Below, piece by piece: positions 2,526-4,921 of a stretch of DNA of 29,597 nucleotides (positions are counted from its first letter, which is position 1; every line of letters starts with the position of its first letter). The notes beneath the pieces are model-generated. The model ran no database searches and was not told where the DNA came from. It was given only the letters and a program-made list of their open reading frames with translations. This DNA is from Thermoproteaceae archaeon (lineage in GTDB: Archaea > Thermoproteota > Thermoprotei > Thermoproteales > Thermoproteaceae). The position numbers and the translations under genes were made by a program. The stretch lies in the NCBI GenBank assembly GCA_020833025.1, contig JAJHRB010000013.1, positions 1 through 29,597 of the forward strand, written 5' to 3'.

Positions 2526-4343
2526 TCAGCCGTGGCTGGCGTGGGCTCGGTGAAGCCGAGGCTGGTCGTCTACGCCCCGCCCGGCGTGGGGCCGGTGGAG
2601 ATTCCCGAGTTCGACGTGACGTGGCTGGCCGTGGAGGTGGACGTGCTCCCGTTTCTCGACCCCGTCAGGGGGCAGTGCAAGGCAGACAGGGCGCTCAGGG
2701 CTCTCGCTGCCGGCGTCGCCGAGCCGACGGTCTTCGTGCTCGAGTGTGACGGCTACTACCCGGGCTACAACTTCGTCTTCGGCCTCGCGGACCCGGCGCT
2801 CATGACTGCCGTGGTCTTCACGGCGAGACTGCGCGGCCCGCTCTTTGAGGAGAGGCTGGCGAAGGAGATCACGCACGAGGCCGGGCTGCGGGGCGGGGTA
2901 AAAAATGGGGTGTCTCTTCATGAGTTCCTTGGCGATCTCCCTCTGTCTCGGCGTCCCGCTTTTTGCCTTTTCTGCGAGGTACATCGCTATCGCTCTCCTG
3001 ATCTCGACGTCCCTCTCTGCCAGCTTTAGGAGGTCTGCCATTGATATATATACGGCATATTTCGGGCCGGATCTCGCGACGTTCGGCCCAAGCCCTGCTG
3101 ACTCGAGCCTGCTGGCGACTTGCAGCGCTTTCTTGAGGTCGCTGACGTAGCGCCTGGCCAGCAGCGAGCCGGCCCTACCGCTGGCGAGGTGCAGTGACAT
3201 CTCAACGCCGGCGACGACTAACGCGTCACTCCCTCGCCTGCCTGCTGCCGCTACCGTACTAGCTGTTGGCACGCTATCAATCCATCTATATGTCTCTCTG
3301 AGGACGTCTATACTTCTCTTTCTCATTCCCAGCTTGTAGGCCGCCCTGAAGGCCTCATCCGTGGCCAGCTTTATCTCGACCCACTTGTGGGATCTGAGAA
3401 GATCGAGCAGCTCGCCGTACGCGCCGGCCGCCTCTCTGAGCTTCACAAACGCCTCCCTGCCGGTGGCGACGAGAGCCTCCTCTGCGCTGATTGTCGAGCC
3501 CAGCCTCCAGGGCTCCCTAGCTGCAATCACCAGTTTGTATCTGCTATGTAAAACCTCCTTTTGTTTGGCCTCTCCGTCTCCCAGCCACATCGCCAGCAGC
3601 GGCGTCCACTCCCCTCGTCTGAGATTCTCCGTGACCAGGCCTATCGCCTCTTCCTTGCCCCACTTCTGCTCCCAGCTCTTTGCCCTGATATGTATCAACA
3701 CGCTTACTCCCTCGCGAGTCAGGTTAACCTTGCCAACGCGCACGCGAAGTGCGCCATATCTCACCGCAGCCCACGCAAACACCTGCCACGGCTGTGAGGT
3801 GTCCATGACGGGCCTATCGCGCTCACAGCCCTCGTCGCTTGCCCTCCATCCCAGCTGCAGCAGCTCTAGCTTCTCCTGCGGTAGCTTCAAGACGGCAGGA
3901 AAGTGCACATCGGCGCTGACGCCGTGTATTGCGAGACGCGGCGCGGCTCTCTCACTCACGTAAATCCACGTCCCGTCCGGCGCGTACAGCCTCTTGCCCT
4001 CTATTTTGTAAACGCCCTCGGCGACGGCCCTGTGTATCGATGTCAGCTTTGCCCTTGCCTGCACCCACGCCTCGTGCAGCAGCCGCTTCAGCGTGTCCCT
4101 GAAGTGTATGAGCTGTCTCCTCTCCTCCTCCAAGAGCGGAAATGTCTCTACGATCCTCTGCACAGCGTAATCGACGTAGGCAGTCCACGCCGGGAATGCC
4201 CAGTCCAGCGGGCCGTGGAGGACTCCGTGTTTGGAGACCCGCTCGAGCACCTCCTCGGTGGTGGGCGGCCTCCCGGCGGGCCTAAGCGCGAGCTCGATGC
4301 GCTGCCTGAGCTCCTCCACGCTGGCCGCGGCACTCCCCTCCAT
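2526..4343 (-). CDS. Large hypothetical protein with two degenerate LAGLIDADG-like motifs (paREP-type repeat family suspected); the last ~125 aa are read-through antisense to amzA
   Basis: ATG 4343 has a TTATATTT box at ~4372-4380. Motifs LLQLGWRASDEG (~3828-3863) and LLAMWLGDGE (~3570-3599) are about 88 aa apart. Coherent sequence ends near KRHPIF at ~2900. Confidence 0.55.
   Translation of the reverse strand: MEGSAAASVEELRQRIELALRPAGRPPTTEEVLERVSKHGVLHGPLDWAFPAWTAYVDYAVQRIVETFPLLEEERRQLIHFRDTLKRLLHEAWVQARAKLTSIHRAVAEGVYKIEGKRLYAPDGTWIYVSERAAPRLAIHGVSADVHFPAVLKLPQEKLELLQLGWRASDEGCERDRPVMDTSQPWQVFAWAAVRYGALRVRVGKVNLTREGVSVLIHIRAKSWEQKWGKEEAIGLVTENLRRGEWTPLLAMWLGDGEAKQKEVLHSRYKLVIAAREPWRLGSTISAEEALVATGREAFVKLREAAGAYGELLDLLRSHKWVEIKLATDEAFRAAYKLGMRKRSIDVLRETYRWIDSVPTASTVAAAGRRGSDALVVAGVEMSLHLASGRAGSLLARRYVSDLKKALQVASRLESAGLGPNVARSGPKYAVYISMADLLKLAERDVEIRRAIAMYLAEKAKSGTPRQREIAKELMKRHPIFYPAPQPGLVRDLLRQPLLKERAAQSRREDHGSHERRVREAEDEVVARVVAVTLEHEDRRLGDAGSESPERPVCLALPPDGVEKREHVHLHGQPRHVELGNLHRPHAGRGVDDQPRLHRAHASHG
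2550..2888 (+). pseudogene. amzA: Archaemetzincin (M54 zinc metallopeptidase), N-terminal half
   Basis: RGQCKAD, GYNFVFGLA, VFTARL and RLAKEITHEAG match the family. Similarity stops right after HEAG. Track start is 2532; 2550 preferred from TATA spacing. Confidence 0.8.
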
Positions 4344-4780
4344 GGCGCGCGGAAATGCGCCAAAATATAAGCGAGCGCGGTAAGCTGGTGCAACTGCGGT
4401 GGGCTGGAAGTTTTGGCGGGGCCACCCTCTGTGGGCAGGAGTCTTGGAACGAGGGCCTGAAGGACAGCTCCAAAAGGGGGCTAGCAGGGGCCGGCCCTCA
4501 CGGGCGCGCCCTCCGCCAGCCCGAGGAGGGAGCACAAAAGCGCCCGCGCGCTTTATGGTTCCTGTTACCCGCCCCAGGCCCCCAGCAAGCCGGCATGAAG
4601 AGAAGGGCCTACCGGGCGCTGCCGCTCAAGTACGACATAATGAGGCTGCCGCCGGAAGTTCAGCAGCTGAGGCGTCTTGCAGAGAAATTTATCCATGCAT
4701 ATAATGCAAGCAGGCGGCTGAGGGGACACGTAATCAAGCATGGAATGAGACCGCCCCACCGCCCGAAGCGCAAGCTCAAG
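2889..4780. mobile_element. ~1.9 kb insertion splitting the archaemetzincin zinc-binding motif
   Basis: Separates HEAG (2874-2885) from MHGLGHC (4781-4801) and carries two unrelated divergent ORFs. Boundaries are uncertain by a few nt. Confidence 0.7.
4595..4780 (+). pseudogene. TnpB-like (IS200/IS605 OrfB) N-terminal fragment, 62 aa, in frame with the amzA C-half
   Basis: MKRRAYRALPLKYD...LRRLAEKFIHAYN resembles the RAY...L..L...F..(V/A)YN start of TnpB proteins. TTTAT box at ~4552-4556. No RuvC or zinc ribbon present. Confidence 0.4.
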
Positions 4781-4921
4781 ATGCACGGGCTCGGCCACTG
4801 CCCCGACCCTCTCTGCGTGATGAGCTTCAGCAACACGATACGCGACGTCGACAGAAAAAACGCCCGGCTCTGCCCGCGCTGTAAGTCCAGGCTCGCGCTG
4901 CTGCTAAGCAGGCGGCGCTAG
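4781..4921 (+). pseudogene. amzA: Archaemetzincin, C-terminal half
   Basis: MHGLGHCPDPLCVMSFSNTIRDVDRKNARLCPRC contains the third zinc His, the Met-turn CVM and the family's four Cys. Confidence 0.85.

Follow-up and report, generated by a model that had tools for sequence, protein, structure and literature searches.

The locus examined here lies within a 29,597-nucleotide stretch of a Thermoproteaceae archaeon genome (the window) and raises the question of what kind of DNA has entered a conserved protease gene. An archaemetzincin (peptidase M54) gene is interrupted by 1,898 nt (~1.9 kb) at positions 2886–4783. Its 5' part (2532–2885, plus strand), ending ...KEITHEAG, matched positions 38–131 of NCBIfam NF033823 and 72–157 of Pfam PF07998 with ~71% identity to uninterrupted orthologues, and its 3' part (4784–4921, plus strand; HGLGHCPDPLCVM...CPRC, stop codon at 4919–4921) matched NF033823 positions 133–170 (E 2e-14) and PF07998 positions 156–192. 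Because profile positions 38–131 matched to the left of the 1.9 kb and 133–170 to its right, the intervening DNA is an insert. The protease sequence stops after HEAG at 2885 and restarts with HGLGHC at 4784, the breakpoint in uninterrupted orthologues being continuous (HEAGHLYGLGHC), and the insertion destroyed the HExxHxxGxxH zinc site. The first-pass annotation had read this stretch as an insert, which the two flanking halves and the uninterrupted orthologues confirm. It had also proposed that a LAGLIDADG-like gene and a divergent TnpB-like gene form a recurrent pair and hence a distinct type of element, a proposal that did not survive the comparisons described below.

On the minus strand, the insert contains a conserved 481-residue ORF (P0001; 2901–4343) with its ATG at 4343 and the end of its family-conserved part at 2901. 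The frame stays open until a stop at 2526–2528, giving a called protein of 605 residues whose tail is an antisense read through the archaemetzincin gene. An ORF of ~480 residues with two LAGLIDADG-like helices ~88 residues apart had been described initially, and both motifs were recovered with 87 residues between them: the end of the first helix, GWRASDE (residues 165–171; 3831–3851, minus strand), where the AlphaFold model has a helix at 156–168 followed by a strand, and the second helix, LAMWLGDG (residues 250–257; 3573–3596, minus strand), modelled as a helix at 247–256. Across 34 diverse relatives both motifs show little or no variation, the GWRASDE and LGDG columns being invariant, and D170, E171 and D256, located at the LAGLIDADG helix ends, are unchanged in all 34 sequences at identities down to 23%, as is G257.

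The ORF is preceded by a leader and promoter of ~80 nt (4344–4421, minus strand) with a TATA-like box (aaatataag, ~4364–4372) ~25 nt before the ATG, and alignments showed this leader to be common to five copies in this genome and to two TnpB copies. Similarity of the window copy to other family copies ends at 4421 and, on the left, ceases for all other copies at 2907, beside a junction filler (2886–2906) that includes the oligo-T run (an A-run on the plus strand) closing the conserved unit. The conserved unit comprises the 80-nt leader and the ORF and does not include a stop codon, and the main part of the insert (2907–4421) is one stripped copy of this multicopy unit.

Profile searches left P0001 without a family: no match was obtained against Pfam (none at E up to 1), NCBIfam or PHROG, it went unrecognised by the LAGLIDADG sequence profiles (Pfam LAGLIDADG_1/2/3 and Hom_end), only one of 34 relatives weakly matched Pfam LAGLIDADG_WhiA (E 0.019), and a family-profile search of PDB sequences returned designed helical proteins only and no LAGLIDADG protein. 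The AlphaFold models (pLDDT 91 for the full protein and 88 for the domain) have the secondary-structure order of two tandem alpha-beta-beta-alpha-beta-beta-alpha domains forming a pseudo-dimer. In an unbiased structure comparison with 48,161 PDB representatives the best 15 were all LAGLIDADG proteins (Z 6.1–9.5), which aligned over 137–167 residues, while unrelated folds reached Z values of 3.5 or less. The top match was I-Tsp061I (Z 9.5, 156 residues aligned, 3.6 Å), which comes from a Thermoproteus rRNA intron, and further matches were I-WcaI (9.2), E-DreI (8.9), PI-SceI (8.6), WhiA (8.4), PI-PfuI (8.2) and I-DmoI (7.6). Foldseek, VIA-align with the full model and the ESM Atlas gave the same outcome, and the models therefore bear out the earlier assignment at the level of fold, with P0001 predicted to be a double-motif LAGLIDADG protein.

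At its N terminus the modelled protein has a helical and small beta region, which is followed by a double LAGLIDADG core at residues ~150–340 and a C-terminal module. In comparison to double-motif homing endonucleases such as I-Tsp061I, I-DmoI, I-SceI and the PI-SceI/PI-PfuI domain, it shows the same two alpha-beta-beta-alpha-beta-beta-alpha halves and the same interface helices with conserved acidic ends, and its gene likewise behaves as selfish multicopy DNA. Unlike these enzymes, the family escapes the LAGLIDADG profiles, lies outside any intron or intein and beside tRNA genes, carries ~150 additional N-terminal and 110 additional C-terminal residues and, in the window copy, runs antisense inside a protein gene. 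The C-terminal module (residues 389–460) aligned with positions ~103–171 of PaRep2b over 69 columns (hhalign probability 73%, E 3e-5). P0001 itself did not match the PaRep2b family PF07775, which was not found in this genome, and one of the 34 relatives did (E 0.0035). PaRep2b is also multicopy and from the same genus, Pyrobaculum, but as it has no known function, the similarity of the modules explains nothing yet.

The second gene of the proposed pair corresponds to a TnpB N-terminal remnant of ~55 codons (4595–4756, plus strand), positioned back to back with P0001 as first described. A TATA-like box (ctttatgg, ~4551–4558) precedes it, so that each of the two starts has a box, as had been claimed. 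By tblastn the remnant matched residues 7–94 of a 427-residue paralogue on contig C89 at 41% identity, covering residues 6–31 (77% identity) and ~70–94 of that protein. Since the paralogue carries Pfam PF07282 (Cas12f1-like/TnpB TNB domain, E 7e-10), the plus-strand ORF can be identified as a real TnpB remnant; the window piece itself lacks PF07282. It is degenerate, truncated and internally deleted, its reading frame continues into the 3' portion of the protease gene, and having neither a RuvC domain nor a zinc ribbon nor a guide-RNA region it has lost everything that defines a TnpB element. The genome does contain a TnpB family resembling the TnpB-only elements of the IS200/IS605 family (IS1341 type), with 27 matches and a conserved right end of ~190 nt (...GATGAAAGGGGGCGC) derived from four copies, whereas the window has only the stub and lacks this right end. 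The earlier remark that no Y1 HUH transposase was visible holds beyond the window, as PF01797 gave no match in this genome (93.9% complete), whereas the positive controls did. IS605-type ends at the junction were also considered and rejected, since the local TnpB right end is a different sequence, absent from the window, and no Y1 transposase was found.

Linkage between the two genes did not recur. Of 19 copies of the large ORF from Thermoproteus sp. CP80, Pyrobaculum sp. WP30, P. oguniense and MAGs, none had a TnpB closer than 4 kb. A further 80 metagenomic copies had no intact TnpB within 2.5 kb, and three of them were preceded by short pieces of TnpB in the same orientation; in complete relatives, the large ORF never lay within 3 kb of a TnpB. 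The two families also vary independently in copy number, with one relative having 82 TnpB matches and no large ORF, and another having 11 distant large-ORF copies and no TnpB. A distinct two-gene mobile element could be argued from the TnpB 5' fragments lying upstream and divergent at two of ~9 copies in this genome (C1 and C122) and from the 80-nt leader that TnpB copies C2 and C95 share with the large ORF. However, with intact TnpB near none of the 99 copies elsewhere (2.5–4 kb), independent copy numbers, a stub devoid of nuclease domain and family right end, and no Y1 transposase in the 94%-complete genome, we consider such an element extremely unlikely. The TnpB stub in the window is a bystander and not a partner of the large ORF, and the LAGLIDADG–TnpB element proposal can be dropped.

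The insert is instead a composite. Between the P0001 leader and the TnpB remnant lies a spacer (4422–4594), of which 4476–4547 is a short repeat also present on contigs C83 and C43, and the remnant is followed by a right junction filler (4757–4783) that has no match in the genome. The additional ~360 bp carried by the window copy had no detectable similarity to the canonical flanks of complete units, the ends of the insert showed neither a target duplication nor inverted repeats, and the assembly contained no recognisable donor. Two candidate termini, a 15-nt inverted match of 87% (2882–2896 with 4751–4765) and a 6-nt CGGGCT repeat considered as a target duplication, were rejected as being at chance level in DNA of 65% GC.

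LAGLIDADG genes in Thermoproteales usually reside in rRNA introns, and together with the best structural match, I-Tsp061I, this raises the possibility that splicing, of either an intein or an archaeal bulge-helix-bulge intron, removes the insert and leaves a functional protease. The ORF is on the strand opposite to archaemetzincin, however, and the 1,898 nt are not a multiple of three and contain stops in the protease frame. Moreover, pairing at the junctions was no better than in shuffled sequence (z -1.25) and no excision point restored the HExxHxxGxxH spacing of the orthologues, leaving this explanation with a negligible probability.

The large ORF belongs to a family of more than 1,092 homologues in Pyrobaculum/Thermoproteus, all called hypothetical. 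This genome has 7–13 matches to it at 72–76% nucleotide identity, and the distribution among relatives is patchy, from 0 to 11 copies. Homology ends of the unit are sharp and common to more than 20 copies, and numerous members are found on short contigs of repeat type. Pairwise comparison of 21 loci showed that shared DNA extends only from ~100–700 nt upstream to ~200 nt downstream of the gene, which excludes a larger element around it, and in a search of this genome for empty sites of 13 foreign loci the left and right flanks were always located on different contigs. Within the shared unit of 1.5–2.3 kb the large ORF is the only gene and has no recombinase match; a small ORF running antisense ahead of three copies in this genome was considered as a further component and rejected, as other genomes do not conserve it. 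All 13 ORFs checked were intact, with a median dN/dS of 0.25 and dS values of 0.5–1.4. Copies within a genome diverge by 20–30% with no near-identical pairs, and there is consequently no sign of recent proliferation.

Taken together, we favour, with moderate confidence, the interpretation that the main part of the insert is a stripped copy of a selfish homing-endonuclease-like unit that was inserted ectopically. The unit consists of the 80-nt leaderless-type promoter and an ORF ending at the oligo-T run without its own stop, and would encode a putative sequence-specific DNA-binding endonuclease whose monomeric core retains acidic residues, D170/E171 and D256, at both LAGLIDADG helix ends. Such a protein may promote retention or spread of its own gene, as does a free-standing homing endonuclease gene. 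The patchy copy number and sharp shared ends support this interpretation, as does a presence/absence difference in Pyrobaculum sp. WP30, where a 1.8 kb segment bearing the family gene lies between the start of a neighbouring gene and a tRNA at a site that, when the sequence was read in four relatives, measured merely 31–75 nt. The intra-genome divergence of 20–30% and the lack of a target duplication at the window copy count against homing.

Long purifying selection would fit a host function equally well. The copies could then be host paralogues that spread by ordinary duplication and encode DNA-binding proteins derived from the LAGLIDADG fold, such as regulators of the WhiA kind, with the archaemetzincin gene broken by unrelated illegitimate recombination. 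The dN/dS of ~0.25, the dS range of 0.5–1.4, the intact ORFs and the lack of young copies are all in keeping with this, as are the N- and C-terminal domains that are unusual for homing endonucleases and the presence among the structural matches (Z 8.2–8.4) of WhiA, a bacterial LAGLIDADG-derived transcription factor with the same double scaffold and a C-terminal domain. WhiA, however, is a single-copy host gene that has lost its catalytic acidic residues, whereas the P0001 family is multicopy and patchy and its acidic residues are invariant. Copy numbers ranging from 0 to 13 among close relatives, sharp shared ends around a gene without its own stop, syntenic sites that are occupied in some genomes and not in others, the disruption of a conserved gene and the many members on short repeat-typical contigs also argue against host paralogues, which we regard as quite unlikely.

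The genomic setting of complete units also speaks for a selfish unit. As ARAGORN overlooked most tRNAs, calling 18 in this genome and none in L066, our tRNA calls were based on Rfam and on T-arm motifs recognised by visual inspection and pattern matching. Outside this genome, complete units are separated by 3–9 nt from the 3' ends of a variety of tRNA genes: all 17 copies retaining the full 3' segment adjoin a tRNA 3' end, involving at least nine different tRNAs, and all five copies retaining the 5'-terminal region are preceded by a tRNA 3' fragment. tRNA context was present in only about a fifth of copies, which also weighs against homing. Direct repeats of the tRNA 3' part surround the units at L076 (30/30 bp) and L071 (34/35 bp), that is, two of 13 tRNA-adjacent copies, and tRNA fragments occur as well in L105, L112 and L167, with L105 forming a tandem in which a tRNA fragment separates the 3' segment end of one unit from the beginning of the next unit. 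The window copy has neither tRNA flanks nor flanking direct repeats and landed ectopically in the archaemetzincin gene; it brought along ~360 bp of unrelated DNA including the dead TnpB 5' stub.

Repetition of a tRNA 3' part on both sides of a unit is a signature of integrase-type recombination rather than of homing, and to our knowledge LAGLIDADG proteins do not make such repeats, which weakens the homing interpretation. Alternatively, the unit may be a non-autonomous mini integrative element that uses the tRNA 3' part as its att site and is moved by a tyrosine-type integrase encoded elsewhere (on a virus, a plasmid or the chromosome), with the LAGLIDADG-fold protein as cargo for maintenance, exclusion or regulation. 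SSV-type and pNOB8-type integrase elements use the same site and leave a displaced tRNA fragment as a direct repeat, and the repeats bounding two units (one a perfect 30 bp, the other 34/35 bp), the resemblance of the L105 tandem to an attP-type joint and the lack of a recombinase inside the 2.1–2.3 kb unit would all be expected of such an element. A published parallel exists at the tRNA-Thr gene of Caldiarchaeum subterraneum, where a 1.87 kb single-ORF multicopy insertion comes with the gain of an intron and the displacement of a tRNA fragment (PMC3293823); the likeness is one of layout, as both are multicopy units of ~2 kb with a non-coding region and one ORF. In contrast to archaeal tRNA-targeting elements, the P0001 unit has no tyrosine recombinase and uses many different tRNAs, and the window copy has none of the features of such elements. 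The use of at least nine different tRNAs would call for many att specificities or for a recombinase acting on the shared T-arm, no helper integrase was identified, and most copies, including that of the window, have no tRNA context. We therefore consider a mini integrative element unlikely but still worth serious attention.

If the LAGLIDADG-fold protein were itself to integrate the unit at or into tRNA genes, it would represent a new kind of site-specific integrase. It is the sole gene between the tRNA-fragment repeats and is conserved under selection in every copy, but this evidence is purely circumstantial and we know of no precedent for strand transfer by the LAGLIDADG fold, making this a very improbable explanation. 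Somewhat less improbable, though still doubtful, is a class of ~2 kb Thermoproteaceae elements that target tRNA genes, are driven by the LAGLIDADG-fold protein and not by an integrase, and supply a replacement tRNA 3' part able to carry a T-loop intron. Two observations lead in this direction. At L071 the functional tRNA contains an intron that the displaced fragment lacks, as in the Caldiarchaeum insertion (PMC3293823), and the unit-adjacent tRNA of WP30 has an 18-nt T-loop intron that is missing from the same tRNA in the compared relatives. Near-identical T-loop introns also occur, with no unit nearby, in 14 of ~48 tRNA genes of this genome, and an enrichment of such introns beside units was rejected on comparing 5 of ~13 adjacent tRNAs with this background. 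An unexplained 'transposition' of near-identical introns among Thermoproteales tRNA genes has been described (Fujishima et al. 2010, as cited in PMC4090602), and a tRNA-targeting process driven by the LAGLIDADG protein, if true, would offer a DNA-level route for it. More generally, a role of the protein in driving tRNA-linked insertions would bear on the gain of introns and fragments in archaeal tRNA genes.

Among known systems, the selfish homing-endonuclease-like unit that we favour can also be compared with the free-standing homing endonuclease genes seg and mob of phage T4, which encode GIY-YIG or HNH enzymes in phage genomes. In common with these, the unit has a single putative nuclease-type gene with its own promoter, an intergenic position beside a conserved gene and a patchy presence; it differs in its predicted LAGLIDADG fold, its location on an archaeal chromosome and, in some copies, long flanking tRNA repeats. 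Homing-endonuclease-fold enzymes of hyperthermophilic archaea are known from rRNA introns and inteins, and a free-standing multicopy gene is a new setting for them in these organisms. What remains is a family of more than 1,000 proteins labelled hypothetical and missed by profile libraries, with a predicted homing-endonuclease fold and intact catalytic acids. Should P0001 prove to be an active thermostable site-specific nuclease, it would provide a new scaffold with extra domains. For annotation purposes, the family accounts for many of the short repeat-ended contigs in metagenome bins of Pyrobaculum and Thermoproteus.

On the plus strand, the archaemetzincin (peptidase M54) gene is present in two parts. 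The first two thirds run from 2532 to 2885 and end ...KEITHEAG (NCBIfam NF033823 positions 38-131; Pfam PF07998 positions 72-157), and the final third, HGLGHCPDPLCVM...CPRC, begins at 4784 (profile positions 133-170). The gene is uninterrupted in seven relatives, where HEAGHLYGLGHC is read across the breakpoint, which falls within the HExxHxxGxxH zinc-binding motif. Since the two profile halves flank the 1,898 nt that separate them and the relatives' gene is uninterrupted, this stretch is a true insertion. Its length is not divisible by three, and stops in the protease frame are numerous within it; an intron or intein is, of all readings of the unit, the one with next to negligible probability. 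No second archaemetzincin copy was found in the window's genome. Both protease halves are still without stops, which suggests that the insertion is not ancient.

The first-pass annotation had described the insert as a minus-strand ORF with two motifs placed back to back with a TnpB-like start, and this observation was confirmed. The conserved 481-aa ORF, whose product we term P0001, extends from the ATG at 4343 to 2901 on the minus strand, the extent common to relatives. The called protein has 605 aa because the frame extends past this conserved end, antisense through the protease gene, until a stop at 2526; the extra 124-aa tail (2526-2900, minus strand) was gained because the unit lacks its own stop codon, and the tails of other copies are unrelated sequence of 0-40 aa. 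In more than 20 copies homology begins ~80 nt 5' of the ATG and stops sharply after ...KRHP(I/L)F at an oligo-T run, the usual archaeal terminator signal, with each stop codon coming from flanking DNA beyond the unit. Three leader types were distinguished, the one in the window's genome being peculiar to it, and comparison of loci identified no larger shared element around the gene.

P0001 had no matches in Pfam, NCBIfam or PHROGs. AlphaFold2 models built with the family alignment reached a pLDDT of 91 over the full length and of 88 when residues 105-345 were modelled by themselves. A Foldseek search of the PDB returned LAGLIDADG meganucleases almost exclusively, with weak E-values, and VIA-align scored these candidates at Z 6-8 over residues 150-340. 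The decisive test of the fold was an unbiased alignment of the domain model against 48,161 PDB representatives, in which the top 15 were LAGLIDADG proteins without exception, including I-Tsp061I from a Thermoproteus rRNA intron (Z 9.5, 156 residues, 3.6 A), I-WcaI (9.2), E-DreI (8.9), PI-SceI (8.6), WhiA (8.2-8.4), PI-PfuI (8.2) and I-DmoI (7.6). These were followed by homodimeric enzymes matched over a half-domain, and unrelated folds all had Z <= 3.5. The ESM Atlas agreed in both shape and language-model features. At the level of fold, the initial proposal of a LAGLIDADG-like gene was thus right, and its two motifs, GWRASDE and LGDG, coincide with residues invariant across 34 sequences with identities as low as 23% (P149, G165, W166, A168, D170, E171, T182, Q187, L254, D256 and G257). 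The motif helices (156-168 and 247-256) are each followed by beta strands in the AlphaFold2 model, and the invariant acids are predicted at the helix ends, the same placement as in active LAGLIDADG enzymes. N-terminal to the core are ~150 residues of long helices and a small sheet, and C-terminal to it ~110 residues forming three strands, a helix, two strands and three helices. This C-terminal module aligned with part of Pfam PaRep2b (hhalign probability 73%), a family of unknown function that, like that of P0001, is multicopy in Pyrobaculum. PaRep2b is absent from the window's genome; the complete 2.2 Mb genome of one relative (G012) has 56 matches, and some matches in related genomes lie within open frames of >1,000 to 4,000 aa.

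Among 5.8 billion proteins, a word-indexed search identified >1,092 homologues at ~65% identity, all of them belonging to genomes of Thermoproteus or Pyrobaculum and to hot-spring metagenomes; nearly all are annotated as hypothetical, and many lie on 2-4 kb contigs. As 1.8 billion representatives searched exhaustively with HMMER yielded 205 clusters, the family is large but narrow, and within the LAGLIDADG world it represents a variant that is genuinely undescribed. Copies within one genome share 72-83% DNA identity, and all 13 examined had intact ORFs (median dN/dS 0.25, dS 0.5-1.4); the copies are old and maintained by selection, with none recent. That the family consists of host DNA-binding proteins derived from LAGLIDADG enzymes is distinctly unlikely in our estimate. 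The presence of the unit is patchy: in Pyrobaculum sp. WP30 the gene is part of a 1.8 kb segment that separates a tRNA from the start of another gene, and the same interval in the four relatives read (G001, G007, G009 and G022) measures just 31-75 nt. With somewhat better than even confidence, the most likely reading is that the unit is a free-standing selfish gene of the homing-endonuclease type, nuclease activity and homing being the weaker half of this proposal.

The connection of the family to tRNA genes is intriguing. Many copies outside the window's genome have a conserved 3' segment of ~170 nt, and wherever this was complete to its end ...GCCGGAAGAG (17/17) the 3' end of an opposite-strand tRNA lay within 3-9 nt. 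At least nine different tRNAs adjoin units, Ile, Arg and His among them, and both WP30 copies are tRNA-adjacent in the same manner. A conserved 5'-terminal region (..TTGAGCC..GCAGGCATGGGG..) is retained in 8 of 100 copies; five keep its tip, each preceded by a tRNA 3'-part fragment. The unit at locus L076 is bounded by a perfect 30-bp repeat of the adjoining tRNA's 3' part, and at L071 the corresponding repeat matches over 34/35 bp, with a 17-nt T-loop intron in the functional tRNA that is missing from the displaced fragment. At L105 a unit end, a tRNA fragment and the next unit's start stand in tandem. Between the repeats lie 2.1-2.3 kb in which the LAGLIDADG-fold gene is the sole gene. This is the layout of an element that has integrated into tRNA genes, with a published parallel in Caldiarchaeum tRNA-Thr, where a 1.87 kb, multicopy, single-ORF insertion is accompanied by a displaced tRNA fragment and a gained intron (PMC3293823). 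A non-autonomous integrative element with the protein as cargo, served by an integrase acting in trans, is a rather unlikely explanation that nonetheless ranks second, and integration of the unit by the LAGLIDADG-fold protein itself is very improbable.

A test for enrichment of T-loop introns beside units was negative; in the window's genome ~14 of 48 tRNA genes contain near-identical T-loop introns although none of them adjoins a unit. These introns, such as GGGGAGAGCCCGCCCAGA, are 16-19 nt long, lie between positions 57 and 58 and occur on contigs C13, C18, C28, C29, C46, C72, C73, C74, C75, C89, C102 and C125. Intron similarity of this kind across different tRNAs has been reported for Thermoproteales. 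In Thermoproteus sp. CP80 (L063, 4001-8293) two copies face each other and end 171-172 nt from different tRNA genes (Ile and Arg), which stand back to back in between. CP80-type copies (L062, L063, L068, L058 and others) also have in common, 100-550 nt upstream of the ORF, a structured non-coding region of ~500 nt with a perfect 20-nt palindrome, ACAGGGGGCTAGCCCCCTGT, tandemly duplicated in some copies; this region may serve as a binding site or represent a small RNA. In the window's genome a small ORF of ~93 aa (…LLARSGLDAVLVIDAWHESHLPLARRYLELCERH…; C108:1381-1659, C54:24973-25161, C122:1027-1206 and C80) is divergent from three unit copies, and it was not found beside copies in other genomes.

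The TnpB assignment was also correct, though only a stub is present: the ORF that begins at 4595 aligns with the N-terminal part of a 427-aa protein (contig C89) bearing a TnpB/Cas12f TNB domain. The stub comprises equivalents of residues 6-31 and ~70-94 only, then 27 nt with no assigned source, and its frame continues by chance into the protease 3' part; the piece is dead. The resulting 108-aa chimeric ORF (4595-4921) has its own TATA-like box and would include GLGHC...CPRC without the HExxH half. The proposal that the two genes form a new element type was refuted by linkage counts. No TnpB match occurred in the 4 kb flanks of 19 copies (at least 11 in Thermoproteus sp. CP80, 2 in Pyrobaculum sp. 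WP30, the others in P. oguniense and MAGs), and no intact TnpB in the 2.5 kb flanks of 80 metagenomic copies, three of which had short TnpB fragments upstream on the same strand. Across complete genomes of the genus, any copy is >3 kb, usually tens of kb, from the nearest TnpB; one relative with 82 TnpB matches is devoid of the ORF, a second lacks TnpB despite 11 distant copies of the ORF, and of the ~9 copies in the window's genome only two, on C1 and C122, lie close to a TnpB 5' fragment. A two-gene LAGLIDADG-TnpB element is accordingly scarcely credible.

One link between ORF and TnpB is genuine. Because the same 80-nt leader heads both the ORF copies and two TnpB copies in the window's genome (C2:22526-22693 and C95:16860-17082), the two repeat families have swapped promoters there; the 5' region of the TnpB copies on C89 and C47 and of the window stub differs from it. 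This genome contains 27 matches to the TnpB family, many of them located at contig ends, and no Y1 transposase was found there. Four TnpB copies have in common a right end of ~190 nt finishing ...GATGAAAGGGGGCGC; this conserved, GC-rich region follows the TnpB stop (C89:55200-55546, C40, C55 and C61), ends sharply at ...GGGGAGATGAAAGGGGGCGC and is probably the guide-RNA scaffold plus right end. The complete 1.8 Mb genome of relative G007 has 82 matches to the TnpB paralogue, many of which contain one in-frame TAA, a massive insertion-sequence expansion in one species of the genus.

At the window copy both the tRNA-linked 3' segment and the 5'-terminal region are missing, its extra 360 bp (4422-4783) bear no resemblance to complete units, and neither inverted repeats nor a target duplication beyond chance level were found at the insert. 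No close donor copy was found in the assembly, the nearest being 76% identical. The window copy is most plausibly a stripped core that landed ectopically together with neighbouring junk, both probably copied in during break repair or by illegitimate recombination. The spacer of the insert also holds a repeat of ~70 nt (4476-4547; ...GGGGGCTAGCAGGGGCCGGCCC...CGCCAGCCCGAGGAGG...) that recurs at C83:3865-3936 and C43:1636-1682 with 88-91% identity.
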